From Okamejei kenojei (taxonomy: Eukaryota), in contig CM069162.1 in NCBI GenBank assembly GCA_035221665.1, positions 25,606,001-25,670,000 of the forward strand: a DNA stretch of 64,000 bases. Direction: 5' to 3'. Positions 1 through 51,134 of this stretch are shown here, in pieces; the first letter of the stretch is position 1; every line of letters begins with the position of its first letter. Under the pieces are notes generated by a model. It searched no databases and had not been told where the DNA came from. It worked only from the letters and a program-made list of their open reading frames with translations. A program made the translations under genes and the position numbers.

Positions 1-3000
1 AACAGTGGAATCGTCAAGCACACAGCATACAACTCAAGCACATCAAAGCTCAACTGAAGTTTCATCAGTCACTGTGTCGCCAGTTGAATCCCACTCCACA
101 ACCTCATCATTTTCATTGGTTACTGAATCCCCTTCAGAAACACGTTCAACATCTGCACAAGCATCAGTGACAACTGAAACTTCATCAGAATCCCATCCAA
201 CTACAGAGGCATCACGAATCACAATGTCCTCTTCAGAAAGACAGCCGACAGCACATGAATCATCAAGTACAGAGCAGTCAACACAAACTCATGGAACAAC
301 ATCAGAAATTCCCTCAGAAAGTGCGTCATCATCAAAATCCCTCGCAACAGCAACAACGTCACCTTTGGTCACTGAGAGCTCAGCGGTAACTTATTCTCAA
401 TCATCGCAAATCACATCCTCCAACAAATCTGCAATAGTCTCACATCCAACGACAGAAGAATCATCGATCACCGTCTCCTCACCTGAAGCACATCAGACAA
501 ATACACAGGAACCTTTTACATCGACTTATCCAAAGACAACACAAGCTTCAACAGAAACTATTTTGACAACAGAAACACATTTAACAACACCAATCTCAAA
601 GGAAACGGAGCCTCCATCAGTAACCTACCACGCACAACAGAAGGCTTATCCACAACAGAATTTTCCTCACCAACACCGAATGGTAGACAGGCATCAGCAA
701 CCACATTGTCCACAGCTGAAACACGGTCAGAAACGCAGGAATCAATAAGAACGGAGCATTCAACACAAACCTTTGCAAGCACGACACAGAATTCTTCAGA
801 GAGTGTGTCCGTTTCAGAACCACATTTCACAACGCAATTTTCAGGCACGACACATTCCTTATCGGAATCATATTCCACATCAGTGAAAGCTTCCTCAACA
901 ACAGAACCTTCATCACAATCACATCCTACAATAGCAGCATCCACAATTGCCACATCCTCTCTGGAAACAACTCCAAAAACCCAGCAATCTTCAAGAACTG
1001 AACTTTCATCACAATCCAATCCAAACAAACCAATTATTCATCAGTCACCGAGTCCTCTTCAGAAACACATTTAACAACATCAAGCTTTATCACAGCTAAC
1101 TGAGTACTCAACAGAAACATACTCCACATCGACACAGGTTTCATCAAAAACTGAATCACCCTCAGAAATCCATCAGACCACAGAAGTGCCTTCAAGCTCC
1201 TTGTCCTCATCAAAAACACATCCAACAACATTACACGAATCATCATCAACAGAGCTTCCAACAACAGCATATCCAGCATTGACAACCGCTTCATCTGTTA
1301 GTGCGTCCCCATCTGAAACCCACCTAACAACAACACCACTATCATCGCCAACTCAGTTCTCAGCAGAGACCTATCCAACAACACAAACATCCACAAACAA
1401 ACCTTCATCAGAAAACACATCCAACAACAGTGGAATCGTCAAGCACACAGCATACAACTCAAGCACATCAAAGCTCAACTGAAGTTTCATCAGTCACTGT
1501 GTCGCCAGTTGAATCCCACTCCACAACCTCATCATTTTCATTGGTTACTGAATCCCCTTCAGAAACACGTTCAACATCTGCACAAGCATCAGTGACAACT
1601 GAAACTTCATCGGAATCCCATCCAACTACAGAGGCATCACGAATCACAATGTCCTCTTCAGAAAGACAGCCGAACAGCACATGAATCATCAAGTACAGCA
1701 GTCAACACAAACTCATGGAACAACATCAGAAATTCCCTCAGAAAGTGCGATATCATCAAAATCCCTCGCAACAGCAACAACGTCACCTTTGGTCACTGAG
1801 AGCTCAGCGGTAACTTATTCTCAATCATCGCAAATCACATCCTCCAACAAATCTGCAGTAGTCTCACATCCAACGACAGAAGAATCATCGATCACCGTTC
1901 CTCACCTGAAGCACAATCAGACAAATACACAGGAACCTTTTACATCGACTTATCCAAAGACGACACAAGCTTCAACAGAACCTATTTTGACAACAGAAAC
2001 ACATTTAACAACACCAATCTCAAAGGAAACGGAGCCTCCATCAGTAACCTACCCACGCACAACAAAGGCTTATCCACAACAGAATTTTCCTCACCAACAC
2101 CGAATGGTAGACAGGCATCAGCAACCACATTGTCCACAGCTGAAACACGGTCAGAAACGCAGGAATCAATAAGAACGGAGCATTCAACACAAACCTTTGC
2201 AAGCACGACACAGAATTCTTCAGAGAGTGTGTCCGTTTCAGAACCACATTTCACAACGCAATTTTCAGGCACGACACATTCCTTATCGGAATCATATTCC
2301 ACATCAGTGAAAGCTCCTCAACAACAGAACCTTCATCAGAATCACATCCTACAATAGCAGCATCCACCAATTGCCACATCCTCTCTGGAAACAACTCCAA
2401 AAACCCCAGCAATCTTCAAGAACTGAACTTTCATCACAATCCAATCCAAACACAACCAATTATTCATCAGTCACCGAGTCCTCTTCAGAAACACATTTAA
2501 CAACATCAAGATTATCACAGCTAACTGAGTCCTCAACAGAAACATACTCCACATCGACACAGGTTTCATCAAAAACTGAATCACCCTCAGAAATCCATCA
2601 GACCACAGAAGTGCCTTCAAGCTCCTTGTCCTCATCAAAAACACATCCAACAACATTTACACGAATCATCATCAACAGAGCTTCCAACAACAGCATATCC
2701 AGCATTGACAACCGCTTCATCTGTTAGTGTGTCCCATCTGAAAACCCACCTAACAACTAAACACCACTATCATCGCCAACTCAGTCCTCAGCAGAGACCT
2801 ATCCAACAACACAAACATCCACAAACAAACCTTCATCAGAAACACATCCAACAACAGTGGAATCGTCAAGCACACAGCATACAACTCAAGCTCATCAAAG
2901 CTCAACTGAAGTTTCATCAGTCACTGTGTCGCCAGTTGAATCCCACTCCACAACCTCATCATTTTTGTCATTGGTTACTGAATCCCCTTCAGAAACACGT

Positions 3001-6000
3001 TCAACATCTGCACAAGCATCAGTGACAACTGAAACTTCATCGGAATCCCATCCAACTACAGAGGCATCACGAATCACAATGTCCTCTTTCAGAAAGACAG
3101 CCGACAGCACATGAATCATCAAGTACAGAGCAGTCAACACAAACTCATGGAACAACATCAGAAATTCCCTCAGAAAGTGCGTCATCATCAAAATCCCTCG
3201 CAACAGCAACAACGTCACCTTTGGTCACTGAGAGCTCAGCGGTAAACTTATTCTCAATCATCGCAAATCACATCCTCCAACAAATCTGCAAGTAGTCTCA
3301 CATCCAACGACAGAAGAATCATCGATCACCGTCTCCTCACCTGAAGCACATCAGACAAATACACAGGAACCTTTTTACATCGACTTATCAAAGACGACAC
3401 AAGCTTCAACAGAAACCTATTTTGACAACAGAAACACATTTAACAACACCAATCTCAAAGGAAACGGAGCCTCCATCAGTAACCTACCCACGCACAACAG
3501 AAGGCTTATCCACAACAGAATTTTCCTCACCAACACCGAATGGTAGACAGGCATCAGCAACCACATTGTCCACAGCTGAAACACGGTCAGAAACGCAGGA
3601 ATCAATAAGAACGGAGCATTCAACACAAACCTTTGCAAGCACGACACAGAATTCTTCAGAGAGTGTGTCCGTTTCAGAACCACATTTCACAACGCAATTT
3701 TCAGGCACGACACATTCCTTATCGGATCATATTCCACATCAGTGAAAGCTTCCTCAACAACAGAACCTTCATCAGAATCACATCCTACAATAGCAGCATC
3801 CACAATTGCCACATCCTCTCTGGAAACAACTCCAAAAACCCAGCAATCTTCAAGAACTGAACTTTCATCACAATCCAATCCAAAACACAACCAATTATTT
3901 CATCAGTCACCGAGTCCTCTTCAGAAACACATTTAACAACATCAAGCTTATCACAGCTAACTGAGTACTCAACAGAAACATACTCCACATCGACACAGGT
4001 TTCATCAAAAACTGAATCACCCTCAGAAATCCATCAGACCACAGAAGTGCCTTCAAGCTCCTTGTCCTCATCAAAAACACATCCAACAACATTACACGAA
4101 TCATCATCAACAGAGCTTCCAACAACAGCATATCCAGCATTGACAACGCTTCATCTGTTAGTGTGTCCCATCTGAAACCCACCTAACAACAACACCACTA
4201 TCATCGCCAACTCAGTCCTCAGCAGAGACCTATCCAACAACACAAACATCCACAAACAAACCTTCATCAGAAACACATCCAACAACAGTGGAATCGTCAA
4301 GCACACAGCATACAACTCAAGCACATCAAAGCTCAACTGAAGTTTCATCAGTCACTGTGTCGCCAGTTGAATCCCACTCCACAACCTCATCATTTTCATT
4401 GATTACTGAATCCCCTCAGAAACACGTTTTCAACGTCTGCACAAGCATCAGTGACAACTGAAACTTCATCGCAATCCCATCCAACTACAGAGGCATCTCG
4501 AATCACAATGTCCTCTTCAGAAAGACAGCCGACAGCACATGAATCATCAAGTACAGTGCAGTCAACACAAACTCATGGAACAACATCAGAAATTCCCTCA
4601 GAAAGTGCGTCATCATCAAAATCCCTCGCAACAGCAACAACGTCACCTTTGGTCACTGAGAGCTCAGCGGTAACTTATTCTCAATCATCGCAAATCACAT
4701 CCTCCAACAAATCTGCAATGTCTCACATCCAACGACAGAAGAATCATCGATCACCGTCTCCTCACCTGAAGCACATCAGACAAATACACAGGAACCTTAT
4801 ACATCGACTTATCCAAAGACAACACAAGCTTCAACAGAAACTATTTTTGACAACAGAAACACATTTAACAACACCAATCTCAAAGGAAACGGAGCCTCCA
4901 TCAGTAACCTACCCACGCACAACAGAAGGCTTATCCACAACAGAATTTTTCCTCACCAACACCGAATGGTAGACATGCATCAGCAACCACATTGTCCACA
5001 GCTGAAACACGGTCAGAAACGCAGGAATCAATAAGAACGGAGCATTCAACACAAACCTTTGCAAGCACGACACAGAATTCTTCAGAGAGTGTGTCCGCTT
5101 CAGAACCACATTTCACAACGCAATTTTCAGGCACGACACAATTCCTTATCGGAATCATATTCCACATCAGTGAAAGCTTCCTCACAACAGAACCTTCATC
5201 AGAATCACATCCTACAATAGCAGCATCCACAATTGCCACATCTCCTTCTGGAAACAACTCCAAAAACCCAGCAATCTTCAAGAACTGAACTTTCATCACA
5301 ATCCAATCCAAACACAACCAATTATTCATCAGTCACCGAGTCCTCTTCAGAAACACATTTAACAACATCAAGCTTATCACAGCTAAACTGAGTACTCAAC
5401 AGAAACATACTCCACATCGACACAGGTTTCATCAAAAACTGAATCACCCTCAGAAATCCATCAGACCACAGAAGTGCCTTCAAGCTCCTTGTCCTCATCA
5501 AAAACACATCCAACAACATTACACGAATCATCATTAACAGAGCTTCCAACAACAGCATATCCAGCATTGACAACTGCTTCATCTGTTAGTGTGTCCCATC
5601 TGAAACCCACCTAACAACAACACCACTATCATCGCCAACTCAGTCCTCAGCAGAGACCTATCCAACAACACAAACATCCACAAACAAAACCTTCATCAGA
5701 AACACATCCAACAACAGTGGAATCGTCAAGCACACAGCATACAACTCAAGCACATCAAAGCTCAACTGAAGTTTCATCAGTCACTGTGTCGCCAGTTGAA
5801 TCCCACTCCACAACCTCATCATTTTCATTGATTACTGAATCCCCTTCAGAAACACGTTCAACGTCTGCACAAGCATCAGTGACAACTGAAACTTCATCGC
5901 AATCCCATCCAACTACAGAGGCATCTCCAATCACAATGTCCTCTTCAGAAAGACAGCCGACAGCACATGAATCATCAAGTACAGTGCAGTCAACACAAAC

Positions 6001-9000
6001 TCCATGGAACAACATCAGAAATTCCCTCAGAAAGTGCGTTCATCATCAAATCCCTCGCAACAGCAACAACGTCACCTTTGGTCACTGAGAGCTCAGCGGT
6101 AACTTATTCTCAATCATCGCAAATCACATCCTCCAACAAATCTGCAATAGTCTCACATCCAACGACAGAAGAATCATCGATCACCGTCTCCTCACCTGAA
6201 GCACATCAGACAAATACACAGGAACCTTATACATCGACTTATCCAAAGACAACACAAGCTTCAACAGAAACTATTTTGACAACAGAAACACCATTTAACA
6301 ACACCAATCTCAAAGGAAACGGAGCCTCCATCAGTAAACCTACCCACGCACAACAGAAGGCTTATCCACAACAGAATTTTCCTCACCAACACGAATGGTA
6401 GACAGGCATCAGCAACCACATTGTCCACAGCTGAAACACGGTCAGAAACGCAGGAATCAATAAGAACGGAGCATTCAACACAAACCTTTGCAAGCACGAC
6501 ACAGAATTCTTCAGAGAGTGTGTCCGTTTCAGAACCACATTTCACAACGCAATTTTCAGGCACGACACATTCCTTATCGGAATCATATTCCACATCAGTG
6601 AAAGCTTCCTCAACAACAGAACCTTCATCAGAATCACATCCTACAATAGCAGCATCCACAATTGCCACATCCTCTCTGGAAACAACTCCAAAAACCCAGC
6701 AATCTTCAAGAACTGAACTTCATCACAATCCAATCCAAACACAACCAATTATTCATCAGTCACCGAGTCCTCTTCAGAAACACATTTAACAACATCAAGC
6801 TTATCACAGCTAACTGAGTACTCAACAGAAAACATACTCCACATCGACACAGGTTTCATCAAAAACTGAATCACCCTCAGAAATCCATCAGACCACAGAA
6901 GTGCCTTCAAGCTCCTTGTCCTCATCAAAAACACATCCAACAACATTACACGAATCATCATCAACAGAGCTTCCAACAACAGCATATCCAGCATTGACAA
7001 CTGCTTCATCTGTTAGTGTGTCCCCATCTGAAACCCACCTAACAACAACACCACTATCATCGCCAACTCAGTCCTCAGCAGAGACCTATCCAACAACACA
7101 AACATCCACAAACAAACCTTCATCAGAAACACATCCAACAACAGTGGAATCGTCAAGCACACAGCATACAACTCAAGCACATCAAAGCTCAACTGAAGTT
7201 TCATCAGTCACTGTGTCGCCAGTTGAATCCCACTCCACAACCTCATCATTTTCATTGATTACTGAATCCCCTTCAGATACACGTTCAACGTCTGCACAAG
7301 CATCAGTGACAACTGAAACTTCATCGCAATCCCATCCAACTACAGAGGCATCTCGAATCACAATGTCCTCTTCAGAAAGACAGCCGACAGCACATGAATC
7401 ATCAAGTACAGTGCAGTCAACACAAACTCATGGAACAACATCAGAAATTCCCTCAGAAAGTGCGTCATCATCAAAATCCCTCGCAACAGCAACAACGTCA
7501 CCTTTGGTCACTGAGAGCTCAGCGGTAACTTATTCTCAATCATCGCAAATCACATCCTCCAACAAATCTGCAATAGTCTCACATCCAACGACAGAAGAAT
7601 CATCGATCACCGTCTCCTCACCTGAAGCACATCAGACAAATACACAGGAACCTTATACATCGACTTATCCAAAGACAACACAAGCTTCAACAGAAACTAT
7701 TTTGACAACAGAAAACACATTTAACAACACCAATCTCAAAGGAAACGGAGCCTCCATCAGTAACCTACCCACGCACAACAGAAGGCTTATCCACAACAGA
7801 ATTTTCCTCACCAACACCGAATGGTAGACAGCATCAGCAACCACATTGTCCACAGCTGAAACACGGTCAGAAACGCAGGAATCAATAAGAACGGAGCATT
7901 CAACACAAACCTTTGCAAGCACGACACAGAATTCTTCAGAGAGTGTGTCCGTTTCAGAACCACATTTCACAACGCAATTTTCAGGCACGACACATTCCTT
8001 ATCGGAATCATATTCCACATCAGTGAAAGCTTCCTCAACAACAGAACCTTCATCAGAATCACATCCTACAATAGCAGCATCCACAATTGCCACATCCTCT
8101 CTGGAAACAACTCCAAAAACCCAGCAATCTTCAAGAACTGAACTTTCATCACAATCCAATCCAAACACAACCAATTATTCATCAGTCACCGAGTCCTCTT
8201 CAGAAACACATTTAACAACATCAAGCTTATCACAGCTAACTGAGTACTCAACAGAAACATACTCCACATCGACACAGGTTTCATCAAAAAACTGAATCAC
8301 CCTCAGAAATCCATCAGACCACAGAAGTGCCTTCAAGCTCCTTGTCCTCATCAAAAACACATCCAACAACATTACACGAAATCATCATTAACAGAGCTTC
8401 CAACAACAGCATATCCAGCATTGACAACTGCTTCATCTGTTAGTGTGTCCCCATCTGAAACCCACCTAACAACAACACCACTATCATCGCCAACTCAGTC
8501 CTCAGCAGAGACCTATCCAACAACACAAACATCCACAAACAAACCTTCATCAGAAAACACATCCAACAACAGTGGAATCGTCAAGCACACAGCATACAAC
8601 TCAAGCACATCAAAGCTCAACTGAAGTTTCATCAGTCACTGTGTCGCCAGTTGAATCCCACTCCACAACCTCATCTTTTCATTGATTACTGAATCCCCTT
8701 CAGAAAACACGTTCAACGTCTGCACAAGCATCAGTGACAACTGAAACTTCATCGCAATCCCATCCAACTACAGAGGCATCTCGAATCACAATGTCCTCTT
8801 CAGAAAGACAGCCGACAGCACATGAATCATCAAGTACAGTGCAGTCAACACAAACTCATGGAACAACATCAGAAATTCTCAGAAAGTGCGTCATCATCAA
8901 AATCCCTCGCAACAGCAACAACGTCACCTTTGGTCACTGAGAGCTCAGCGGTAACTTATTCTCAATCATCGCAAATCACATCCTCCAACAAATCTGCAAT

Positions 9001-12000
9001 AGTCTCACATCCAACGACAGAAGAATCATCGATCACCGTCTCCTCACCTGAAGCACATCAGACAAATACACAGGAACCTTATACATCGACTTATCCAAAG
9101 ACAACACAAGCTTCAACAGAAACTATTTTGACAACAGAAACACATTTAACAACACCAATCTCAAAGGAAACGGAGCCTCCATCAGTAACCTACCCACGCA
9201 CAACAGAAGGCTTATCCACAACAGAATTTTCCTCACCAACACCGAATGGTAGACAGGCATCAGCAACCACATTGTCCACAGCTGAAACACGGTCAGAAAC
9301 GCAGGAATCAATAAGAACGGAGCATTCAACACAAACCTTTGCAAGCTCGACACAGAATTCTTCAGAGAGTGTGTCCGTTTCAGAACCACATTTCACAACG
9401 CAATTTTCAGGCACGACACATTCCTTATCGGAATCATATTCCACATCAGTGAAAGCTTCCTCAACAACAGAACCTTCATCAGAATCACATCCTACAATAG
9501 CAGCATCCACAATTGCCACATCCTCTCTGGAAACAACTCCAAAATCCCAGCAATCTTCAAGAACTGAACTTTCATCACAATCCAATCCAAACACAACCAA
9601 TTATTCATCAGTCACCGAGTCCTCTTCAGAAACACATTTAACAACATCAAGCTTTATCACAGCTAACTGAGTACTCAACAGAAACATACTCCACATCGAC
9701 ACAGGTTTCATCAAAAACTGAATCACCCTCAGAAATCCATCAGACCACAGAAGTGCCTTCAAGCTCCTTGTCCTCATCAAAAACACATCCAACAACATTA
9801 CACGAATCATCATCAACAGAGCTTCCAACAACAGCATATCCAGCATTGACAAACCGCTTCATCTGTTAGTGTGTCCCCATCTGAAACCCACCTAACAACA
9901 ACACCACTATCATCGCCAACTCAAGTCCTCAGCAGAGACCTATCCAACAACACAAACATCCACAAACAAACCTTCATCAGAAACACATCCAACAACAGTG
10001 GAATCGTCAAGCACACAGCATACAACTCAAGCACATCAAAGCTCAACTGAAGTTTCATCAGTCACTGTGTCGCCAGTTGAATCCCACTCCACAACCTCAT
10101 CATTTTCATTGGTTACTGAATCCCCTTCAGAAACACGTTCAACATCTGCACAAGCATCAGTGACAACTGAAACTTCATCGGAATCCCATCCAACTACAGA
10201 GGCATCACGAATCACAATGTCCTCTTCAGAAAGACAGCCGACAGCACATGAATCATCAAGTACAGAGCAGTCAACACAAACTCATGGAACAACATCAGAA
10301 ATTCCCTCAGAAAGTGCGTCATCATCAAAATCCCTCGCAACAGCAACAACGTCACCTTTGGTCACTGAGAGCTCAGCGGTAACTTATTCTCAATCATCGC
10401 AAATCACATCCTCCAACAAATCTGCAGTAGTCTCACATCCAACGACAGAAGAATCATCGATCACCGTCTCCTCACCTGAAGCACATCAGACAAATACACA
10501 GGAACCTTTTACATCGACTTATCCAAAGACGACACAAGCTTCAACAGAAACCTATTTTGACAACAGAAACACATTTAACAACCACCAATCTCAAAGGAAA
10601 CGGAGCCTCCATCAGTAACCTACCCACGCACAACAGAAGGCTTATCCACAAAAGAATTTTCCTCACCAACACCGAATGGTAGACAGGCCATCAGCAACCA
10701 CATTGTCCACAGCTGAAACACGGTCAGAAACGCAGGAATCAATAAGAACGGAGCATTCAACACAAACCATTGCAGCACGACACAGAATTCTTCAGAGAGT
10801 GTGTCCGTTTCAGAACCACATTTCACAACGCAATTTTCAGGCACGACACATTCCTTATCGGAATCATATTCCACATCAGTGAAAGCTTCCTCAACAACAG
10901 AACCTTCATCAGAATCACATCCTACAATAGCAGCATCCACAATTGCCACATCCTCTCTGGAAACAACTCCAAAAACCCAGCAATCTTCAAGAACTGAACT
11001 TTCATCACAATCCAATCCAAACACAACCAATTATTCATCAGTCACCGAGTCCTCTTCAGAAACACATTTAACAACATCAAGCTTATCACAGCTAACTGAG
11101 TACTCAACAGAAACATACTCCACATCGACACAGGTTTCATCAAAAACTGAATCACCCTCAGAAATCCATCAGACCACAGAAGTGCCTTCAAGCTCCTTGT
11201 CCTCATCAAAAACACATCCAACAACATTACACGAATCATCATCAACAGAGCTTCCAAACAACAGCATATCCAGCATTGACAACTGCTTCATCTGTTAGTG
11301 TGTCCCATCTGAAACCCACCTAACAACAACACCACTATCATCGCCAACTCAGTCCTCAGCAGAGACCTATCCAACAACACAAACATCCACAAACAAACCT
11401 TCATCAGAAACACATCCAACAACAGTGGAATCGTCAAGCACACAGCATACAACTCAAGCACATCAAAGCTCAACTGAAGTTTCATCAGTCACTGTGTCGC
11501 CAGTTGAATCCCACTCCACAACCTCATCATTTTCATTGATTACTGAATCCCCTTCAGAAACACGTTCAACGTCTGCACAAGCATCAGTGACAACTGAAAC
11601 TTCATCGCAATCCCATCCAACTACAGAGGCATCTCGAATCACAATGTCCTCTTCAGAAAGACAGCCGACAGCACATGAATCATCAAGTACAGTGCAGTCA
11701 ACACAAACTCATGGAACAACATCAGAAATTCCCTCAGAAAGTGCGTCATCATCAAAATCCCTCGCAACAGCAACAACGTCACCTTTGGTCACTGAGAGCT
11801 CAGCGGTAACTTATTCTCAATCATCGCAAATCACATCCTCCAACAAATCTGCAATAGTCTCACATCCAACGACAGAAGAATCATCGATCACCGTCTCCTC
11901 ACCTGAAGCACATCAGACAAATACACAGGAACCTTATACATCGACTTATCCAAAGACAACACAAGCTTCAACAGAAACTATTTTGACAACAGAAACACAT

Positions 12001-18000: not shown

Positions 18001-21000
18001 TTCCACATCAGTGAAAGCTTCCTCAACAACAGAACCTTCATCAGAATCACATCCTACAATAGCAGCATCCACAATTGCCACATCCTCTCTGGAAACAACT
18101 CCAAAAACCCAGCAATCTTCAAGAACTGAACTTTCATCACAATCCAATCCAAACACAACCAATTATTCATCAGTCACCGAGTCCTCTTCAGAAACACATT
18201 TAACAACATCAAGTTTATCACAGCTAACTGAGTACTCAACAGAAACATACTCCACATCGACACAGGTTTCATCAAAAACTGAATCACCCTCAGAAATCCA
18301 TCAGACCACAGAAGTGCCTTCAAGCTCCTTGTCCTCATCAAAAACACATCCAACAACATTACACGAATCATCATCAACAGAGCTTCCAACAACAGCATAT
18401 CCAGCATTGACAACTGCTTCATCTGTTAGTGTGTCCCCATCTGAAACCCACCTAACAACAACACCACTATCATCGCCAACTCAGTCCTCAGCAGAGACCT
18501 ATCCAACAACACAAACATCCACAAACAAACCTTCATCAGAAACACATCCAACAACAGTGGAATCGTCAAGCACACAGCATACAACTCAAGCACATCAAAG
18601 CTCAACTGAAGTTTCATCAGTCACTGTGTCGCCAGTTGAATCCCACTCCACAACCTCATCATTTTCATTGATTACTGAATCCCCTTCAGAAACACGTTCA
18701 ACATCTGCACAAGCATCAGTGACAACTGAAACTTCATCGGCAATCCCATCCAACTACAGAGGCATCTCGAATCACAATGTCCTCTTCAGAAAGACAGCCG
18801 ACAGCACATGAATCATCAAGTACAGTGCAGTCAACACAAACTCATGGAACAACATCAGAAATTCCCTCAGAAAGTGCGTCATCATCAAAATCCCTCGCAA
18901 CAGCAACAACGTCACCTTTGGTCACTGAGAGCTCAGCGGTAACTTATTCTCAATCATCGCAAATCACATCCTCCAACAAATCTGCAATAGTCTCACATCC
19001 AACGACAGAAGAATCATCGATCACCGTCTCCTCACCTGAAGCACATCAGACAAATACACAGGAACCTTATACATCGACTTATCCAAAGACAACACAAGCT
19101 TCAACAGAAACTATTTTGACAACAGAAACACATTTAACAACACCAATCTCAAAGGAAACGGAGCCTCCATCAGTAACCTACCCACGCACAACAGAAGGCT
19201 TATCCACAACAGAATTTTCCTCACCAACACCGAATGGTAGACAGGCATCAGCAACCACATTGTCCACAGCTGAAACACGGTCAGAAACGCAGGAATCAAT
19301 AAGAACGGAGCATTCAACACAAACCTTTGCAAGCACGACACAGAATTCTTCAGAGAGTGTGTCCGTTTCAGAACCACATTTCACAACGCAATTTTCAGGC
19401 ACGACACATTCCTTATCGGAATCATATTCCACATCAGTGAAAGCTTCCTCAACAACAGAACCTTCATCAGAATCACATCCTACAATAGCAGCATCCACAA
19501 TTGCCACATCCTCTCTGGAAACAACTCCAAAATCCCAGCAATCTTCAAGAACTGAACTTTCATCACAATCCAATCCAAACACAACCAATTATTCATCAGT
19601 CACCGAGTCCTCTTCAGAAACACATTTAACAACATCAAGCTTATCACAGCTAACTGAGTCCTCAACAGAAACATACTCCACATCGACACAGGTTTCATCA
19701 AAAACTGAATCACCCTCAGAAATCCATCAGACCACAGAAGTGCCTTCAAGCTCCTTGTCCTCATCAAAAACACATCCAACAACATTACACGAATCATCAT
19801 CAACAGAGCTTCCAACAACAGCATATCCAGCATTGACAACCGCTTCATCTGTTAGTGTGTCCCCATCTGAAACCCACCTAACAACAACACCACTATCATC
19901 GCCAACTCAGTCCTCAGCAGAGACCTATCCAACAACACAAACATCCACAAACAAACCTTCATCAGAAACACATCCAACAACAGTGGAATCGTCAAGCACA
20001 CAGCATACAACTCAAGCACATCAAAGCTCAACTGAAGTTTCATCAGTCACTGTGTCGCCAGTTGAATCCCACTCCACAACCTCATCATTTTCATTGGTTA
20101 CTGAATCCCCTTCAGAAACACGTTCAACATCTGCACAAGCATCAGTGACAACTGAAACTTCATCGGAATCCCATCCAACTACAGAGGCATCACGAATCAC
20201 AATGTCCTCTTCAGAAAGACAGCCGACAGCACATGAATCATCAAGTACAGAGCAGTCAACACAAACTCATGGAACAACATCAGAAATTCCCTCAGAAAGT
20301 GCGTCATCATCAAAATCCCTCGCAACAGCAACAACGTCACCTTTGGTCACTGAGAGCTCAGCGGTAACTTATTCTCAATCATCGCAAATCACATCCTCCA
20401 ACAAATCTGCAGTAGTCTCACATCCAACGACAGAAGAATCATCGATCACCGTCTCCTCACCTGAAGCACATCAGACAAATACACAGGAACCTTTTACATC
20501 GACTTATCCAAAGACGACACAAGCTTCAACAGAACCTATTTTGACAACAGAAACACATTTAACAACACCAATCTCAAAGGAAACGGAGCCTCCATCAGTA
20601 ACCTACCCACGCACAACAGAAGGCTTATCCACAACAGAATTTTCCTCACCAACACCGAATGGTAGACAGGCATCAGCAACCACATTGTCCACAGCTGAAA
20701 CACGGTCAGAAACGCAGGAATCAATAAGAACGGAGCATTCAACACAAACCTTTGCAAGCACGACACAGAATTCTTCAGAGAGTGTGTCCGTTTCAGAACC
20801 ACATTTCACAACGCAATTTTCAGGCACGACACATTCCTTATCGGAATCATATTCCACATCAGTGAAAGCTTCCTCAACAACAGAACCTTCATCAGAATCA
20901 CATCCTACAATAGCAGCATCCACAATTGCCACATCCTCTCTGGAAACAACTCCAAAAAACCCAGCAATCTTCAAGAACTGAACTTTCATCACAATCCAAT

Positions 21001-24000
21001 CCAAACACAACCAATTATTCATCAGTCACCGAGTCCTCTTCAGAAACACATTTAACAACATCAAGTTTATCACAGCTAACTGAGTACTCAACAGAAACAT
21101 ACTCCACATCGACACAGGTTTCATCAAAAACTGAATCACCCTCAGAAATCCATCAGACCACAGAAGTGCCTTCAAGCTCCTTGTCCTCATCAAAAACACA
21201 TCCAACAACATTACACGAATCATCATCAACAGAGCTTCCAACAACAGCATATCCAGCATTGACAACCGCTTCATCTGTTAGTGTGTCCCCATCTGAAACC
21301 CACCTAACAACAACACCACTATCATCGCCAACTCAGTCCTCAGCAGAGACCTATCCAACAACACAAACATCCACAAACAAACCTTCATCAGAAACACATC
21401 CAACAACAGTGGAATCGTCAAGCACACAGCATACAACTCAAGCACATCAAAGCTCAACTGAAGTTTCATCAGTCACTGTGTCGCCAGTTGAATCCCACTC
21501 CACAACCTCATCATTTTCATTGGTTACTGAATCCCCTTCAGAAACACGTTCAACATCTGCACAAGCATCAGTGACAACTGAAACTTCATCGCAATCCCAT
21601 CCAACTACAGAGGCATCTCGAATCACAATGTCCTCTTCAGAAAGACAGCCGACAGCACATGAATCATCAAGTACAGAGCAGTCAACACAAACTCATGGAA
21701 CAACATCAGAAATTCCCTCAGAAAGTGCGTCATCATCAAAATCCCTCGCAACAGCAACAACGTCACCTTTGGTCACTGAGAGCTCAGCGGTAACTTATTC
21801 TCAATCATCGCAAATCACATCCTCCAACAAATCTGCAATAGTCTCACATCCAACGACAGAAGAATCATCGATCACCGTCTCCTCACCTGAAGCACATCAG
21901 ACAAATACACAGGAACCTTATACATCGACTTATCCAAAGACAACACAAGCTTCAACAGAACCTATTTTGACAACAGAAACACATTTAACAACACCAATCT
22001 CAAAGGAAACGGAGCCTCCATCAGTAACCTACCCACGCACAACAGAAGGCTTATCCACAAAAGAATTTTCCTCACCAACACCGAATGGTAGACAGGCATC
22101 AGCAACCACATTGTCCACAGCTGAAACACGGTCAGAAACGCAGGAATCAATAAGAACGGAGCATTCAACACAAACCTTTGCAAGCACGACACAGAATTCT
22201 TCAGAGAGTGTGTCCGTTTCAGAACCACATTTCACAACGCAATTTTCAGGCACGACACATTCCTTATCGGAATCATATTCCACATCAGTGAAAGCTTCCT
22301 CAACAACAGAACCTTCATCAGAATCTCATCCTACAATAGCAGCATCCACAATTGCCACATCCTCTCTGGAAACAACTCCAAAAACCCAGCAATCTTCAAG
22401 AACTGAACTTTCATCACAATCCAATCCAAACACAACCAATTATTCATCAGTCACCGAGTCCTCTTCAGAAACACATTTAACAACATCAAGCTTATCACAG
22501 CTAACTGAGTCCTCAACAGAAACATACTCCACATCGACACAGGTTTCATCAAAAACTGAATCACCCTCAGAAATTCCATCAGACCACAGAAGTGCCTTCA
22601 AGCTCCTTGTCCTCATCAAAAACACATCCAACAACATTACACGAATCATCATCAACAGAGCTTCCAACAACAGCATATCCAGCATTGACAACCGCTTCAT
22701 CTGTTAGTGTGTCCCCATCTGAAACCCACCTAACAACAACACCACTATCATCGCCAACTCAGTCCTCAGCAGAGACCTATCCAACAACACAAACATCCAC
22801 AAACAAACCTTCATCAGAAACACATCCAACAACAGTGGAATCGTCAAGCACACAGCATACAACTCAAGCACATCAAAGCTCAACTGAAGTTTCATCAGTC
22901 ACTGTGTCGCCAGTTGAATCCCACTCCACAACCTCATCATTTTCATTGGTTACTGAATCCCCTTCAGAAACACGTTCAACATCTGCACAAGCATCAGTGA
23001 CAACTGAAACTTCATCGGAATCCCATCCAACTACAGAGGCATCACGAATCACAATGTCCTCTTCAGAAAGACAGCCGACAGCACATGAATCATCAAGTAC
23101 AGAGCAGTCAACACAAACTCATGGAACAACATCAGAAATTCCCTCAGAAAGTGCGTCATCATCAAAATCCCTCGCAACAGCAACAACGTCACCTTTGGTC
23201 ACTGAGAGCTCAGCGGTAACTTATTCTCAATCATCGCAAATCACATCCTCCAACAAATCTGCAGTAGTCTCACATCCAACGACAGAAGAATCATCGATCA
23301 CCGTCTCCTCACCTGAAGCACATCAGACAAATACACAGGAACCTTTTACATCGACTTATCCAAAGACGACACAAGCTTCAACAGAACCTATTTTGACAAC
23401 AGAAACACATTTAACAACACCAATCTCAAAGGAAACGGAGCCTCCATCAGTAACCTACCCACGCACAACAGAAGGCTTATCCACAACAGAATTTTCCTCA
23501 CCAACACCGAATGGTAGACAGGCATCAGCAACCACATTGTCCACAGCTGAAACACGGTCAGAAACGCAGGAATCAATAAGAACGGAGCATTCAACACAAA
23601 CCTTTGCAAGCACGACACAGAATTCTTCAGAGAGTGTGTCCGTTTCAGAACCACATTTCACAACGCAATTTTCAGGCACGACACATTCCTCATCGGAATC
23701 ATATTCCACATCAGTGAAAGCTTCCTCAACAACAGAACCTTCATCACAATCACATCCTACCGATAGCAGCATCCACAATTGCCACATCCTCTCTGGAAAC
23801 AACTCCAAAAACCCAGCAATCTTCAAGAACTGAACTTTCATCACAATCCAATCCAAACACAACCAATTATTCATCAGTCACCGAGTCCTCTTCAGAAACA
23901 CATTTAACAACATCAAGCTTATCACAGCTAACTGAGTCCTCAACAGAAACATACTCCACATCGACACAGGTTTCATCAAAAACTGAATCACCCTCAGAAA

Positions 24001-27000
24001 TCCATCAGACCACAGAAGTGCCTTCAAGCTCCTTGTCCTCATCAAAAACACATCCAACAACATTACACGAATCATCATCAACAGAGCTTCCAACAACAGC
24101 ATATCCAGCATTGACAACCGCTTCATCTGTTAGTGTGTCCCCATCTGAAACCCACCTAACAACAACACCACTATCATCGCCAACTCAGTCCTCAGCAGAG
24201 ACCTATCCAACAACACAAACATCCACAAACAAACCTTCATCAGAAACACATCCAACAACAGTGGAATCGTCAAGCACACAGCATACAACTCAAGCACATC
24301 AAAGCTCAACTGAAGTTTCATCAGTCACTGTGTCGCCAGTTGAATCCCACTCCACAACCTCATCATTTTCATTGGTTACTGAATCCCCTTCAGAAACACG
24401 TTCAACATCTGCACAAGCATCAGTGACAACTGAAACTTCATCGCAATCCCATCCAACTACAGAGGCATCACGAATCACAATGTCCTCTTCAGAAAGACAG
24501 CCGACAGCACATGAATCATCAAGTACAGAGCAGTCAACACAAACTCATGGAACAACATCAGAAATTCCCTCAGAAAGTGCGTCATCATCAAAATCCCTCG
24601 CAACAGCAACAACGTCACCTTTGGTCACTGAGAGCTCAGCGGTAACTTATTCTCAATCATCGCAAATCACATCCTCCAACAAATCTGCAGTAGTCTCACA
24701 TCCAACGACAGAAGAATCATCGATCACCGTCTCCTCACCTGAAGCACATCAGACAAATACACAGGAACCTTATACATCGACTTATCCAAAGACAACACAA
24801 GCTTCAACAGAAACTATTTTGACAACAGAAACACATTTAACAACACCAATCTCAAAGGAAACGGAGCCTCCATCAGTAACCTACCCACGCACAACAGAAG
24901 GCTTATCCACAACAGAATTTTCCTCACCAACACCGAATGGTAGACAGGCATCAGCAACCACATTGTCCACAGCTGAAACACGGTCAGAAACGCAGGAATC
25001 AATAAGAACGGAGCATTCAACACAAACCTTTGCAAGCACGACACAGAATTCTTCAGAGAGTGTGTCCGTTTCAGAACCACATTTCACAACGCAATTTTCA
25101 GGCACGACACATTCCTTATCGGAATCATATTCCACATCAGTGAAAGCTTCCTCAACAACAGAACCTTCATCAGAATCACATCCTACAATAGCAGCATCCA
25201 CAATTGCCACATCCTCTCTGGAAACAACTCCAAAAACCCAGCAATCTTCAAGAACTGAACTTTCATCACAATCCAATCCAAACACAACCAATTATTCATC
25301 AGTCACCGAGTCCTCTTCAGAAACACATTTAACAACATCAAGCTTATCACAGCCAACTGAGTCCTCAACAGAAACATACTCCACATCGACACAGGTTTCA
25401 TCAAAAACTGAATCACCCTCAGAAATCCATCAGACCACAGAAGTGCCTTCAAGCTCCTTGTCCTCATCAAAAACACATCCAACAACATTACACGAATCAT
25501 CATCAACAGAGCTTCCAACAACAGCATATCCAGCATTGACAACCGCTTCATCTGTTAGTGTGTCCCCATCTGAAACCCACCTAACAACAACACCACTATC
25601 ATCGCCAACTCAGTCCTCAGCAGAGACCTATCCAACAACACAAACATCCACAAACAAACCTTCATCAGAAAACACATCCAACAACAGTGGAATCGTCAAG
25701 CACACAGCATACAACTCAAGCACATCAAAGCTCAACTGAAGTTTCATCAGTCACTGTGTCGCCAGTTGAATCCCACTCCACAACCTCATCATTTTCATTG
25801 GTTACTGAATCCCCTTCAGAAACACGTTCAACATCTGCACAAGCATCAGTGACAACTGAAACTTCATCGCAATCCCATCCAACTACAGAGGCATCTCGAA
25901 TCACAATGTCCTCTTCAGAAAGACAGCCGACAGCACATGAATCATCAAGTACAGAGCAGTCAACACAAACTCATGGAACAACATCAGAAATTCCCTCAGA
26001 AAGTGCGTCATCATCAAAATCCCTCGCAACAGCAACAATGTCACCTTTGGTCACTGAGAGCTCAGCGGTAACTTATTCTCAATCATCGCAAATCACATCC
26101 TCCAACAAATCTGCAATAGTCTCACATCCAACGACAGAAGAATCATCGATCACCGTCTCCTCACCTGAAGCACATCAGACAAATACACAGGAACCTTATA
26201 CATCGACTTATCCAAAGACAACACAAGCTTCAACAGAAACCTATTTTGACAACAGAAACACATTTAACAACACCAATCTCAAAGGAAACGGAGCCTCCAT
26301 CAGTAACCTACCCACGCACAACAGAAGGCTTATCCACAAACAGAATTTTCCTCACCAACACCGAATGGTAGACAGGCATCAGCAACCACATTGTCCACAG
26401 CTGAAACACGGTCAGAAACGCAGGAATCAATAAGAACGGAGCATTCAACACAAACCTTTGCAAGCACGACACAGAATTCTTCAGAGAGTGTGTCCGTTTC
26501 AGAACCACATTTCACAACGCAATTTTCAGGCACGACACATTCCTCATCGGAATCATATTCCACATCAGTGAAAGCTTCCTCAACAACAGAACCTTCATCA
26601 GAATCTCATCCTACAATAGCAGCATCCACAATTGCCACATCCTCTCTGGAAACAACTCCAAAAACCCAGCAATCTTCAAGAACTGAACTTTCATCACAAT
26701 CCAATCCAAACACAACCAATTATTCATCAGTCACCGAGTCCTCTTCAGAAACACATTTAACAACATCAAGTTTATCACAGCTAACTGAGTCCTCAACAGA
26801 AACATACTCCACATCGACACAGGTTTCATCAAAAACTGAATCACCCTCAGAAATCCATCAGACCACAGAAGTGCCTTCAAGCTCCTTGTCCTCATCAAAA
26901 ACACATCCAACAACATTACACGAATCATCATCAACAGAGCTTCCAACAACAGCATATCCAGCATTGACAACCGCTTCATCTGTTAGTGTGTCCCCATCTG

Positions 27001-29495
27001 AAACCCACCTAACAACAACACCACTATCATCGCCAACTCAGTCCTCAGCAGAGACCTATCCAACAACACAAACATCCACAAACAAACCTTCATCAGAAAC
27101 ACATCCAACAACAGTGGAATCGTCAAGCACACAGCATACAACTCAAGCACATCAAAGCTCAACTGAAGTTTCATCAGTCACTGTGTCGCCAGTTGAATCC
27201 CACTCCACAACCTCATCATTTTCATTGGTTACTGGAATCCCCTTCAGAAACACGTTCAACATCTGCACAAGCATCAGTGACAACTGAAACTTCATCGGAA
27301 TCCCATCCAACTACAGAGGCATCACGAATCACAATGTCCTCTTCAGAAAGACAGCCGACAGCACATGAATCATCAAGTACAGAGCAGTCAACACAAACTC
27401 ATGGAACAACATCAGAAATTCCCTCAGAAAGTGCGTCATCATCAAAATCCCCTCGCAACAGCAACAACGTCACCTTTGGTCACTGAGAGCTCAGCGGTAA
27501 CTTATTCTCAATCATCGCAAATCACATCCTCCAACAAATCTGCAATAGTCTCACATCCAACGACAGAAGAATCATCGATCACCGTCTCCTCACCTGAAGC
27601 ACATCAGACAAATACACAGGAACCTTATACATCGACTTATCCAAAGACAACACAAGCTTCAACAGAAACTATTTTGACAACAGAAACACATTTAACAACA
27701 CCAATCTCAAAGGAAAACGGAGCCTCCATCAGTAACCTACCCACGCACAACAGAAGGCTTATCCACAAAAGAATTTTCCTCACCAACACCGAATGGTAGA
27801 CAGGCATCAGCAACCACATTGTCCACAGCTGAAACACGGTCAGAAACGCAGGAATCAATAAGAACGGAGCATTCAACACAAACCTTTGCAAGCACGACAC
27901 AGAATTCTTCAGAGAGTGTGTCCGTTTCAGAACCACATTTCACAACGCAATTTTCAGGCACGACACATTCCTCATCGGAATCATATTCCACATCAGTGAA
28001 AGCTTCCTCAACAACAGAACCTTCATCACAATCACATCCTACCGAAGCAGCATCCACAATTGCCACATCCTCTCTGGAAACAACTCCAAAAACCCAGCAA
28101 TCTTCAAGAACTGAACTTTCATCACAATCCAATCCAAACACAACCAATTATTCATCAGTCACCGAGTCCTCTTCAGAAACACATTTAACAACATCAAGTT
28201 TATCACAGCTAACTGAGTCCTCAACAGAAACATACTCCACATCGACACAGGTTTCATCAAAAACTGAATCACCCTCAGAAATCCATCAGACCACAGAAGT
28301 GCCTTCAAGCTCCTTGTCCTCATCAAAAACACATCCAACAACATTACACGAATCATCATCAACAGAGCTTCCAACAACAGCATATCCAGCATTGACAACC
28401 GCTTCATCTGTTAGTGTGTCCCCATCTGAAACCCACCTAACAATAACACCACTATCATCGCCAACTCAGTCCTCAGCAGAGACCTATCCAACAACACAAA
28501 CATCCACAAACAAACCTTCATCAGAAACACATCCAACAACAGTGGAATCGTCAAGCACACAGCATATAACTCAAGCACATCAAAGCTCAACTGAAGTTTC
28601 ATCAGTCACTGTGTCGCCAGTTGAATCCCACTCCACAACCTCATCATTTTCATTGGTTACTGAATCCCCTTCAGAAACACGTTCAACATCTGCACAAGCA
28701 TCAGTGACAACTGAAACTTCATCGGAATCCCATCCAACTACAGAGGCATCACGAATCACAATGTCCTCTTCAGAAAGACAGCCGACAACACATGAATCAT
28801 CAAGCACAGAACAGTCAACACAAACGCATGGAACAACATCAGAAATTCCCTCAGAAAGTGCGTCCTCATCAAAAACCCTCACAACAGCAACAACGTCACC
28901 TTTGGTCACTGAGAGCTCAGCGGTAACTTATTCTCAATCATCGCAAATCACATCCTCCAACAAATCTGCAATAGTCTCACATCCAACGACAGAAGAATCA
29001 TCGATCACCGTCTCCTCACCTGAAGCACATCAGACAAATACACAGGAACCTTATACATCGACATATCCAAAGACAACACAAGCTTCAACAGAAACTATTT
29101 TGACAACAGAAACACATTTAACAACACCAATCTCAAAGGAAACGGAGCCTCCATCAGTAACCTACCCACGCACAACAGAAGGCTTATCCACAACAGAATT
29201 TTCCTCACCAACACCGAATGGTAGACAGGCATCAGCAACCACATTGTCCACAGCTGAAACACGGTCAGAAACGCAGGAATCAATAACAACGGAGCATTCA
29301 ACACAAACCTTTGCAAGCACGACACAGAATTCTTCAGAAAGTGTGTCCGTTTCAGAACCACATTTCACAACGCAATTTTCTGTCACGGAACATTCCTCAT
29401 CGGAATCATATTCCACATCAGTGAAAGCTTCCTCAACAACAGAACCTTCATCACAATCACATCCTACCGAAGCAGCATCCACAGTTGCCACATCC
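1..29495 (+). repeat. Coding tandem array, unit about 1425 bp / 475 aa, about 20.7 near-identical copies, continuing upstream of the window
   Basis: The marker gtggaatcgtcaagcacacagc recurs at about 5, 1430, 2857, 4288, 5717, 7144, 8572, 9998, 11425, 12851, 14278, 15704, 17132, 18557, 19983, 21409, 22835, 24261, 25687, 27114 and 28542. Confidence 0.98.
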
Positions 29496-30063
29496 TCAAC
29501 AACATTGCAGGAATTATCATCTGCAGAGCTTCCAACAACAGCATATCCAACATTGACAACTGCTCCATCTGTTAGTGTGTACCCATCTGAAACCCACCTA
29601 ACAACAACACCATTATCATCGCCATCTCAGTCCTCAGTAGAGACCTATCCAACAACACAAACATCCACAAACAAACCTTCATCAGAAACACATCCAACAA
29701 CAGTGGAATCGTCAAGGACACAGCATACAATGCAAGTGCCTTCAACCTCCGTGTCATCATCAAAAACACATCCAACAACATTACATGAATCATCAACAAG
29801 AATGCCATTCACAACTAAGATGACTACAAGTAAAATTCATTCTATCAGTTCAGTTCATTCAACTTCGAAAGTTTCAACACATCCAAATACTGTATCATCT
29901 ACCCTGCCTCCAGCACTGGACTACTGCAGTAGATGCCGTTGCCTGAATGGAGGTACTTGTAATTCAAGTGCAACAACAGAAGATCACTGTGTGTGTGATT
30001 GTCCTGCAGATACTTATGGTACTCATTGTGAATATGGACTTAACAATACCCATGCTGTACCCG
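1..30063 (+). CDS. Giant PTS (Ser/Thr/Pro-rich) exon of a MUC3/MUC12/MUC17-family transmembrane mucin, 5'-partial, ending in an EGF-like motif
   Basis: All long + ORFs are pieces of one S/T/E/P/H-rich repeat, broken by scattered 1-bp indels. The last ORF (27819-30071) runs into DYCSRCRCLNGGTCNSSATTEDHCVCDCPADTYGTHCEYG and a canonical donor CCG|GTAAGT at 30063/30064 (phase 1). Confidence 0.9.
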
Positions 30064-30529: not shown

Positions 30530-30651
30530 GTACAAACATACCAAAGAGAGAAGTTTTTCTCATATTTCGGATAAACAGTACCTGGGATAAAAGGTTGGAA
30601 AACACTTCAAGCTTGCAATATAGAACTTATGTTCAACATTTGATTACAGAG
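30530..30651 (+). CDS. Mucin exon: SEA domain, N-terminal part
   Basis: Acceptor tcttcttttgctgcag|, donor GAG|gttggt. Phase 1 to 0. Translation GTNIPKREVFLIFRINSTWDKRLENTSSLQYRTYVQHLITE resembles the SEA pattern 'F/W...L.n.sS..Y'. Confidence 0.85.
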
Positions 30652-45883: not shown

Positions 45884-45948
45884 CTGACACCATTATACAA
45901 AATGGCCTCACCAGAGCACTTTTACAAAGTAATTATTACTGAACTCCG
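45884..45948 (+). CDS. Mucin exon: SEA domain, middle part
   Basis: Acceptor ttattttttccag|, donor CG|gtatgt. Phase 0 to 2. Translation LTPLYKMASPEHFYKVIITEL(R). Confidence 0.85.
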
Positions 45949-47207: not shown

Positions 47208-47404
47208 GGAAGGAAGCATTATCATAAAGAGCAAAGGCCTCTACAACTATACCAATAATCAGACAGAAATCAACTATTTAAACCATCATCTAGCCCAAAC
47301 ATTGCTCACTAATATTAATAATACAGATACTTTGAATCACCTCAGATTGGGCGGTAGCAACGTGGAACTCACTGGTATATATACTCCGGTCTCATCAATC
47401 AACA
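47208..47404 (+). CDS. Mucin exon: SEA domain C-terminal part with the G|SIII autoproteolysis motif
   Basis: Acceptor actttctccacag|, donor A|gtaagt. Phase 2 to 1. Translation (R)EGSIIIKSKGLYNYTNNQTEINYLNHHLAQTLLTNINNTDTLNHLRLGGSNVELTGIYTPVSSIN. LREGSIII corresponds to the SEA G|SVVV motif. Confidence 0.9.
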
Positions 47405-51063: not shown

Positions 51064-51134
51064 ACATTCAGATCCTGGCACTCCACAGAAGTGGTACTCG
51101 ATTGATGAAGAATATTTCAGGTTTCCACATACAG
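51064..51134 (+). CDS. Mucin exon: cytoplasmic tail 1
   Basis: Acceptor tttttctccttcccctcag|, donor G|gtaatt. Phase 2 to 1. Translation HSDPGTPQKWYSIDEEYFRFPHT. Confidence 0.8.

Follow-up and report, generated by a model that had tools for sequence, protein, structure and literature searches.

The closest described systems are the human genes MUC3A, MUC3B, MUC12 and MUC17 at 7q22, in which one giant exon with a high content of proline, threonine and serine (PTS) is followed by EGF-SEA-EGF, transmembrane and cytoplasmic-tail exons, a layout that the skate locus described here shares, with a single exon that we infer. Exons of 39,267 bp in MUC3B and 32,428 bp in MUC12 have been reported (PMC9578598), as has a length of up to 23,080 aa for the MUC12 protein (PMC13345508). 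The exon and protein sizes of the skate gene are within this range and are no record. The homogenised repeat units of these human mucins measure 17 aa in MUC3, 28 aa in MUC12 and 59 aa in MUC17 (Table 1, PMC6163557), and a class I PDZ motif is common to all four members of the cluster (PMC13643018). An older statement holds that homologues of MUC3, MUC12 and MUC17 are missing in fishes (PMC1552070).

Here we argue that a 1,425-bp tandem array in a 64,000-nucleotide stretch of Okamejei kenojei DNA (the window) is probably the single unspliced mucin-domain exon, ~43.6 kb long, of a working membrane mucin with a predicted length of ~14,900 residues, and that the frameshifts in its assembled sequence are likely long-read errors.

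Results

A preliminary description of the window had counted at least 20.7 near-identical units that continued at its edge, and this was borne out: the array, at a single locus, extends another 13.6 kb to the left of the window, for a total of ~30.4 units, with no N and no break in the assembled stretch. Window units are 97-98.5% identical to the last unit when gaps are counted. Tandem Repeats Finder, whose period limit is 500, is blind to a unit of this length. The consensus of 29 full units has a length of exactly 1,425 bp and a single frame without stops, of 475 aa, with Ser at 26%, Thr at 23% (Ser+Thr 49%), Pro at 7% and no Cys, i.e. the long Pro/Thr/Ser-rich tandem domain of SEA-type transmembrane mucins. 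The consensus holds neither a GT[AG]AG donor nor an AATAAA, in line with the earlier remark that intron signals are absent; four weak pyrimidine-AG stretches are present. All 31 unit candidates lie at the array locus on contig C32, on which ground a reading of the unit as a dispersed satellite was dropped.

The features of the gene are collected in Table 1. From acceptor to donor the giant exon spans 43,637 bp as assembled; at 1,425 bp per unit it spans 43,590 bp, which is exactly 14,530 codons, with phase 1 at both ends. Both of its unique ends are open in the frame of the unit, and a phase-1 donor (gtaagt) lies directly after position 30,063. The array joins one EGF-like module, matched by Pfam hEGF only at E 0.14, and then the SEA exons directly. 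All eight downstream exons are open, bounded by AG and GT, in phase and matched by shark and ray proteins, and the interval 49,103-52,469 encodes a single transmembrane helix and cytoplasmic tail. The GS-hydrophobic cleavage motif of a juxtamembrane SEA domain is found in a window exon as GSIII. Pfam SEA scores above cut-off in the orthologues P0003 and P0005 and gives no match for the window exons taken singly, and a Pfam SEA search of the genome did not pick up the window gene, whose SEA domain spans three exons. The folded protein was the shark homologue P0003 and not the spliced window protein (mean pLDDT 51, SEA part 60-80); the top 5 of its 50 listed matches are SEA domains (Z 12.4-9.5, rmsd 2.8-3.5, 100-116 aligned). 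A sequence search of solved structures gave SEA matches that were only weak (best E 0.0045).

Further upstream, one plausible candidate for a signal-peptide exon lies 62 kb from the giant exon (L016:4071-4146), and a scan of the 148 longest of 475 frames found no host gene between the two. Upstream, the neighbour is an MRPS16-like exon; the downstream one is a gene of the ODAD1 family.

Table 1. Coordinates of the array and of the predicted gene features (window positions unless otherwise given)
Feature	Position	Strand	Remarks
Candidate acceptor, start of array and exon	L010:6427 = G000:C32:25592427		13.6 kb left of the window
Array, right-hand two thirds	1..29497	+	20.7 units of 1,425 bp (475 aa)
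Degenerate unit remnants and unique Ser/Thr-rich linker	29489..29918	+	open in the unit's frame
First EGF-like Cys-rich module; end of giant exon	29919..30063	+	8 Cys; 36/53 identical to P0001
Exon, first part of SEA domain	30530..30651	+	17/37 identical to P0001, 20/36 to P0002
Exon, middle of SEA domain	45884..45948	+	18/21 identical to P0001
Exon, remainder of SEA domain	47208..47404	+	opens with GSIII, predicted self-cleavage site; SEA fold of homologue P0003
Exon, membrane-proximal Cys-rich / EGF-like region	47876..48038	+	34/53 identical to P0001
Exon, end of EGF-like module, transmembrane helix, basic stop-transfer residues	49103..49264	+	
Exon, cytoplasmic tail 1	51064..51134	+	20/23 identical to P0001
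Exon, cytoplasmic tail 2	52166..52317	+	38/50 identical to P0001
Last coding exon and stop codon	52425..52469	+	C-terminus VEQ, not a class I PDZ motif
Likely 3' untranslated region	52470..53318	+	AATAAA at 53,142 and 53,313 (motif positions only)

An SEA-type membrane mucin with one huge PTS exon had been proposed before, and the open consensus and the in-phase EGF-SEA-EGF-TM-tail exons bear out that class of gene, the single exon being read from DNA rather than RNA. The accompanying estimates, an exon above 30 kb and a protein above 10,000 aa, are exceeded by our best reading; since the assembled array is not open, a point absent from the preliminary description, both depend on its indels being errors.

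No splice joint and no RNA cover of the unique exons was found in 8 of 24 listed runs, all of them in the form of assembled contigs. The sole run recorded as RNA (X20) yielded a single contig of 163 bp, which lies inside the repeat and has a depth of 2.1. In runs X14, X17 and X18 nothing but the repeat is covered, and these runs may represent shallow DNA; in these four runs, missing cover of the unique exons is not evidence against expression. It is conceivable that the gene works while splicing mostly skips or shortens the giant exon, with the 14,900-residue form rare or absent. Skipping would keep the frame, given phase 1 at both ends and a length that is a multiple of three once corrected; RNA joining the array to unique exons did not appear in the 8 runs, and orthologues are represented in databases by short models (254-891 aa), though probably truncated predictions. 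P0001, P0002 and P0005, however, keep the first EGF module, and skipping would lose it as well; the consensus unit offers no strong donor. Moreover, 101 distinct substitutions in the array create no stop where 4.0 are expected (P 0.013), and in several organism labels the unit has stayed at a length divisible by three, both of which argue for translation. We consider predominant skipping unlikely and retain the full-length exon as the preferred reading.

Read-depth copy number, suggested earlier as a check, agrees with the assembled array. The depth of the unit relative to a single-copy contig is 26 in run X5, 30-36 in X6, 29 in X12 and 18 in X10, a range of 18-36 across four organism labels that is in keeping with ~30 units, with one single-copy contig per run and contig depth not being a copy number as such. 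Runs X5, X10 and X12 have no cover of the unique 3' part, and their single-copy depth comes from the contig at the unique 5' edge. The array might still be real and coding but assembled at a wrong length, collapsed or expanded, in which case exon and protein sizes would be off by a large factor: it far exceeds many reads, error density peaks within it, some of its units differ by just 1-3 substitutions and one of the ratios (X10) is only 18. We nevertheless regard this as very unlikely: another sample under the same organism label gives a ratio of 26, two relatives give 29-36, the array stretch is without N or break, and its units show distinct substitution patterns and a positional gradient.

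The frameshifts of the assembled array bear most directly on the giant exon. Across 29 units there are 103 indels, 101 of them shifting the frame (83 events fall within window positions 1-29,425); assembled units are 1,423-1,435 bp long and only 2 of 29 are indel-free. The longest stop-free run in the window array is 791 codons, and the frame of the giant exon, as assembled, stops at codon 1,055. Nearly all events are single-base (97/103), with 63 of 69 single insertions copying a neighbouring base (expected 50%) and 21 of 28 deletions coming from runs (expected 43%). Most distinct indels are private to one unit (71/85); the other 14 recur in 2-4 units, and their carriers are slightly closer to one another than units paired at random (P 0.054). 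Private indels in the 19 central units number 57, private substitutions 15. Error density is highest inside the array, and no indel falls in the 2,917 bases at the start of the exon or the 2,351 at its end (P 4e-4 at the near-edge rate).

Short-read contigs give a similar picture. Those of runs X14 and X17 are 1,455 bp long with 0 gaps in alignment, a length consistent with a 1,425-bp cycle that closes on itself with 30 bases of overlap. The majority differences listed for 6 runs include no stop. Run X12 (organism D) contains one 96-bp contig with a 1-base deletion, at depth 43 of 496, and also loose ends into unrelated DNA. Contigs drop rare variants, and an indel truly present in 1 of 30 units would be missing from them. 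Silent substitutions number 35 against 28.9 expected, no clear excess (P 0.098). The array indels are likely to be long-read errors and not lesions. A dead allele, whose real frameshifts leave the array drifting as satellite DNA in a decaying mucin gene, would account for the early stop, the 101 frameshifting indels and the near-neutral proportions of silent and replacement changes, but is highly improbable in view of the error-like indel pattern, the lack of nonsense substitutions, the intact downstream exons (8/8), the gap-free majority units of independent runs and the confinement of the unit to its one locus.

The coding unit has an internal structure of its own. Its best comb period is 16.5 aa, a value reached by none of 300 shuffles; the catshark orthologue P0005 shows lags of 17, 34, 50 and 67 and aligns to the unit with a score of 355 versus 206 +/- 13 for shuffles. 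These periodicities, new here, make the 475-aa unit a higher-order repeat and not a primary unit; the faded 16-17-aa motif of which it is built is common to the catshark orthologue. What had been called an exceptionally long unit is indeed a very long homogenised one, though composed of these sub-repeats. Homogenisation by recombination (unequal crossover), as also proposed before, remains the best reading: central units are 99.4% alike and 5' units 98.6%, the difference grows with distance, and 241 of 861 site pairs are four-gamete incompatible, mosaic units being a product that the assembly consensus itself could also generate.

Orthologues occur in sharks, ray-finned fishes and frogs. Trees of the SEA-to-tail region, a quick one of 64 rows and a careful one of 28 rows, both without an outgroup and with no named MUC13 included, separate two clades. 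One (96/97) holds the window gene together with proteins of sharks, ray-finned fishes and frogs, and its branches follow the order of the species. The window gene lies outside the clade of mammalian MUC3, MUC12 and MUC17 with their reptile, frog and coelacanth relatives (100/100). Members of its clade are P0001 (Pristis), P0012 (Callorhinchus), P0015 (Polyodon), P0003, P0005, P0008, P0013 and P0016; identity to P0001 is 68% over 313 columns, with an exon-by-exon match. One frog species has a member in each clade. Forcing the cartilaginous-fish rows into the MUC3/12/17 clade gave an AU p of 0.031 for a group chosen after seeing the tree. Orthology to MUC3/12/17 was dropped on the basis of this placement.

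Discussion

By analogy with known SEA mucins, the predicted protein would be O-glycosylated on up to ~7,100 Ser/Thr and would project from the epithelial surface as a bottle-brush filament, up to ~3.6 micrometres long if it scales like MUC17. Self-cleavage in the SEA domain may occur at GSIII, the protein staying attached until it is shed.

As for its origin, a decayed 16-17-aa repeat, still visible in the catshark orthologue, may have been fixed as a block of ~29 sub-repeats, amplified ~30-fold and kept uniform by unequal crossover and gene conversion. This would be a clean case of mucin lengthening: after the decay of a short repeat, a block of its copies becomes fixed as a higher-order unit and is then amplified, in the manner of satellite DNA except that the reading frame must be preserved. 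With the 1,425-bp unit present at ~18-36 copies in four organism labels, its turnover rate and length constraint are measurable from short reads. An annotation pipeline that met the uncorrected indels would truncate such a gene or call it a pseudogene.

More broadly, and with rather more doubt than confidence, we propose a third gnathostome lineage of SEA membrane mucins, apart from MUC3/12/17 and MUC4, which amniotes would have lost and which sharks, rays, ray-finned fishes and frogs would have kept; the window gene would be its full-length form. In the skate, its mucin domain would be a 43.6-kb exon in which a 475-aa higher-order unit recurs ~30 times. We know of no longer homogenised mucin unit; its length and approximate copy number would be held in several species even as concerted evolution renews its sequence. 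If true, constant unit length and copy number would point to selection on filament length. Fish and frog genes named 'mucin-17' or 'mucin-3' in databases would belong to this suggested separate lineage, which bears on the statement that fishes lack MUC3/12/17 homologues (PMC1552070).

The window gene and the MUC3/12/17 cluster both have divergent edge units, and a tail motif is common to both. The basic repeat of MUC3, at 17 aa, is like the 16-17-aa sub-repeat of the skate unit, and MUC3 also has a long imperfect period of ~375 aa. The human units (17, 28 and 59 aa) are shorter than the 475 aa found here, as the preliminary description had it, but by the trees these genes are probably paralogues and not orthologues of the window gene. 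The skate protein also lacks the class I PDZ motif of the group. The group is placed between ACHE and TRIM56, and none of 21 ACHE-like, esterase-family matches lies on C32, the contig of the window gene. Shark, fish and frog proteins entered as 'mucin-17', 'mucin-3A/3B-like' or 'IMPG2' are short models without a resolved PTS domain, and none of the proteins tested from the window gene's clade showed a near-identical long unit. These database names were assigned automatically and, going by the tree, mislead.

MUC4-like proteins of sharks, hagfish and lamprey have a NIDO-VWD-C8-EGF order followed by SEA-like, EGF and transmembrane regions. Their clade is the nearest other one by path length in the SEA-to-tail tree without an outgroup, and they have a similar transmembrane-entry motif. 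Unlike them, the window gene goes from array to SEA without any NIDO, VWD or C8 exon in between; NIDO, AMOP/VWD and C8 domains before the EGF region, the mark of MUC4, were not found, and the orthologues are colinear and without such domains. A likely MUC4-like paralogue lies elsewhere in the genome, on C14. Beyond the mucins, filaggrin and hornerin have units of roughly 324 and 470 aa, in ~6-12 copies, and are cytoplasmic skin proteins. Their large last exon carries tandem repeats inside it (PMC2668185).

Predicted gene structure

On the evidence of its sequence, the locus quite probably encodes a real and intact giant membrane mucin. Its predicted array exon measures 43,637 bp as assembled and, after subtraction of a net 47 inserted bases, 43,590 bp or 14,530 codons; at each of its unique ends the reading frame is open and continues that of the unit. 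The eight downstream exons are open, AG-GT bounded and phase-compatible, and encode a SEA domain with the motif GSIII, split over three exons, as well as an EGF-like region rich in Cys, a transmembrane helix and a tail whose last residues are VEQ. They match the Pristis pectinata protein P0001 ('mucin-17') exon by exon, and the five best structural matches to the predicted fold of a shark homologue (P0003) were all SEA domains (Z 12.4-9.5).

Features of the mucin locus, its surroundings and a paralogous mucin (bare coordinates are positions in the window, which spans G000:C32:25606001-25670000; L, stretches fetched outside the window; C32 and C14, contigs of the Okamejei kenojei assembly, G000)
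Feature	Position	Strand	Remarks
MRPS16-like exon	L018:8233-8550		Pfam Ribosomal_S16, E 1.8e-24; ~78 kb upstream of giant exon; nearest upstream host-gene match found
Candidate signal-peptide exon	L016:4071-4146		62 kb upstream of giant exon; phase-1 donor
Giant exon	L010:6427 to 30,063		candidate acceptor; donor after 30,063
Contiguous unit copies in window	1-29,497		20.7 units, then two short remnants (BLAST with last unit)
Eight downstream exons	30,530-52,469
Perfect inverted repeat, 339 nt	31,389-31,727 / 32,428-32,766		~700 nt between arms; intron after first SEA exon; recent inversion or assembly artefact
Broken LINE	~33,000-37,300		same intron; in-frame reverse transcriptase match 34,081-35,322
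Broken LTR retroelement	~38,450-44,640		terminal direct repeats ~89% alike, 5.99 kb apart; BEL/Pao-like by eye
338-codon open frame	57,982-58,995		within C-rich repeat; no Pfam match; probably a retroelement piece
ODAD1-family gene, likely first exons	~62,200-62,600		no Pfam match for this exon alone
ODAD1-family gene, matches	G000:C32:25675672-25683402		beyond the window, downstream of the mucin
Paralogous membrane mucin	G000:C14:60.43-60.45 Mb (L024-L026)	minus	resembles MUC4-like group
Its Thr-rich exon	L025:9070-9825	minus
Its calcium-binding-type EGF exons	L026:2986-3399	minus

A dominant period of ~1,426 and a uniform A+C-rich composition mark the window's initial 30 kb. The near-identical 1425-bp array does run past the window edge, as the preliminary description held: it extends 13.6 kb upstream, for a total of ~30.4 units (29 full units plus partial ends), without N over its full length. 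When 600 bases of the unit were searched against the whole genome, all 31 candidates lay at this locus. At exactly 1,425 bp, the consensus forms a single open frame of 475 aa, with 26.1% Ser, 23.2% Thr (234 Ser+Thr), 9.9% Glu, 6.7% Pro and four N-glycosylation sequons; it holds 47 Glu and 19 His, yet lacks Asp, Cys and Trp.

Frameshifts in the assembled array

The preliminary description had proposed an intron-free exon of more than 30 kb and a protein of over 10,000 aa. Indel correction yields ~14,855 codons from giant exon to stop and the consensus is open, but the array as assembled is not: its 29 full units contain 103 indel events (101 frameshifting; 83 inside the window), all but units 23 and 29 are affected, and the frame read from the candidate acceptor hits a stop at codon 1,055. 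Single-base events account for 97 of the 103, insertions outnumber deletions (73 vs 30), and 63 of 69 single-base insertions copy the adjacent base, where 50% would be expected. Most distinct events (71 of 85) are private to one unit, and the 19 central units carry 57 private indels vs 15 private substitutions; germline mutation has the opposite balance. No indels occur in the outermost 2,917 and 2,351 bases of the giant exon, positions that can be anchored by unique flanks. Of the 101 distinct substitutions, none creates a stop (4.0 expected, P 0.013), and an excess of silent changes is not clear (35 vs 28.9 expected, P 0.098). The frameshifts have the pattern of uncorrected long-read error, although 14 indels shared by 2-4 units, with a marginal fit to unit relatedness (P 0.054), speak against pure error.

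Eight of 24 listed sequencing runs were examined, all as assembled contigs, and none of the eight contained a splice joint. Runs X14 and X17 (organism A) each gave one gap-free 1,455-bp contig, a length that we read as one putative closed cycle of 1,425 bp with 30 bases of overlap. X5, also from organism A and from a different study than the best-covering runs, carries the assembly consensus base at 14 of 15 sites where the last unit deviates; organisms B, C and D carry the unit at ~95-98% identity. X12 contained one 96-bp contig with a 1-base deletion (depth 43 of 496) and loose contig ends running into unrelated DNA. Depth of the unit relative to single-copy contigs was 26 (X5), 30-36 (X6), 29 (X12) and 18 (X10, low depth); these ratios, rough because contig depth is no copy number, fit the assembled ~30.4 units.

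Proposed origin and homogenisation of the unit

Long stretches of the unit match other parts of it at 64-73%, and its best internal period, 16.5 aa, was matched by 0 of 300 shuffles and therefore implies ~29 decayed sub-repeats per unit. By this periodicity, the 475-aa unit is itself a higher-order repeat. A catshark orthologue (P0005) shares the period (lags 17, 34, 50 and 67) and aligns to the unit with a score of 355 (100 shuffles, 206 +/- 13, maximum 246); seven Pro/Thr/Ser-rich regions from frogs and bony fishes scored at or near the shuffle range.

Units differ by a mean of 16.5 substitutions: central units by 8.9, the eight 5' units among themselves by 19.5, and the last unit by as many as 33. 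Differences increase with distance along the array, and four-gamete incompatibility holds for 241 of the 861 shared-site pairs, a pattern that fits unequal crossover with conversion; assembly mixing could be a further source of mosaic units. Majority alleles that no unit among the 29 assembled ones carries number at least 7 in X6, 6 in X10, 13 in X12, 17 in X18 and 7 in X14, with no stop among them in the 40 best-supported differences listed per run, and such alleles are a sign of concerted evolution. X14 and X17 bear the organism label of X5 but come from another study; over window 28,600-29,425 their majority unit has at least 7 alleles that occur in no assembled unit, a hint of rapid array turnover between populations, or of a second species under the shared label.

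Phylogenetic placement

A profile search returned 542 proteins at E <= 0.001, the best 150 of which were used. A quick tree combined the window protein with 63 proteins matching from SEA to tail; a careful tree of 28 rows left out three long-branched rows as well as those that were redundant or unnamed. Group A (96/97) joins the window gene with Pristis, sharks, Callorhinchus, frogs, Polyodon and teleosts, branching in species order; group B (96/91) is MUC4-like, six of its seven scanned proteins carrying NIDO and VWD; and group C (100/100) holds mammalian MUC3, MUC12 and MUC17 with turtle, lizard, frog and coelacanth relatives. Hyperolius is represented by one protein in each of groups A and C. 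The tree position of the window gene marks its bearer as a batoid. Forcing the cartilaginous-fish rows into group C was rejected (p 0.031, for a group picked after the tree was seen). No amniote occurs among the 14 named of 22 other group A rows in the quick tree. Both trees are unrooted, having no outgroup, and contain no named MUC13; loss in amniotes would be a possible reading.

The paralogous mucin on C14 also has a SEA-like piece, EGF and a transmembrane exon. A second ODAD1-family member lies on contig C25, and esterase-family matches were absent from C32.

Proposed function and comparison with known mucins

Sequence comparison establishes the anatomy and homology of the predicted gene; known SEA mucins suggest how its product would behave. 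It would enter the secretion pathway, be densely O-glycosylated (234 Ser+Thr per unit, ~7,100 overall) and self-cleave at SEA, a process in which the GSIII-type motif has a role. The glycosylated domain would stand as an extended filament. In MUC17, a 4,073-aa domain reaches up to 1 micrometre (PMC13643018), a scale that would give ~3.6 micrometres here. The tails of MUC3/12/17 carry a class I PDZ motif whereas the window mucin tail does not, so that apical anchoring would differ.

MUC3 has an imperfect period of ~375 aa, and the units of filaggrin and hornerin span ~324 and ~470 aa. Human mucin units, described beforehand as much shorter, do not exceed 169 aa where tabulated (Table 1, PMC6163557), against 475 aa here; the available text of PMC10609567, PMC2668185 and PMC12776774 holds no information on unit length. 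MUC3/12/17 homologues are described as apparently absent from chicken and fishes in the accessible part of PMC1552070, and a carp muc17 is named in that of PMC11414713, with no tie to group A found. The literature searched, in its available parts and with most subscription journals and supplements outside its scope, held no account of a 475-aa-unit array or of the group A clade. The size of the giant exon is not exceptional, because the human MUC3B and MUC12 exons are comparable (39,267 and 32,428 bp in CHM13, as given in the accessible part of PMC9578598); MUC12, of up to 23,080 aa, is termed the largest human exon in the available text of PMC13345508. The window mucin is ordinary in kind and size, and unusual in its unit length, unit origin and lineage.
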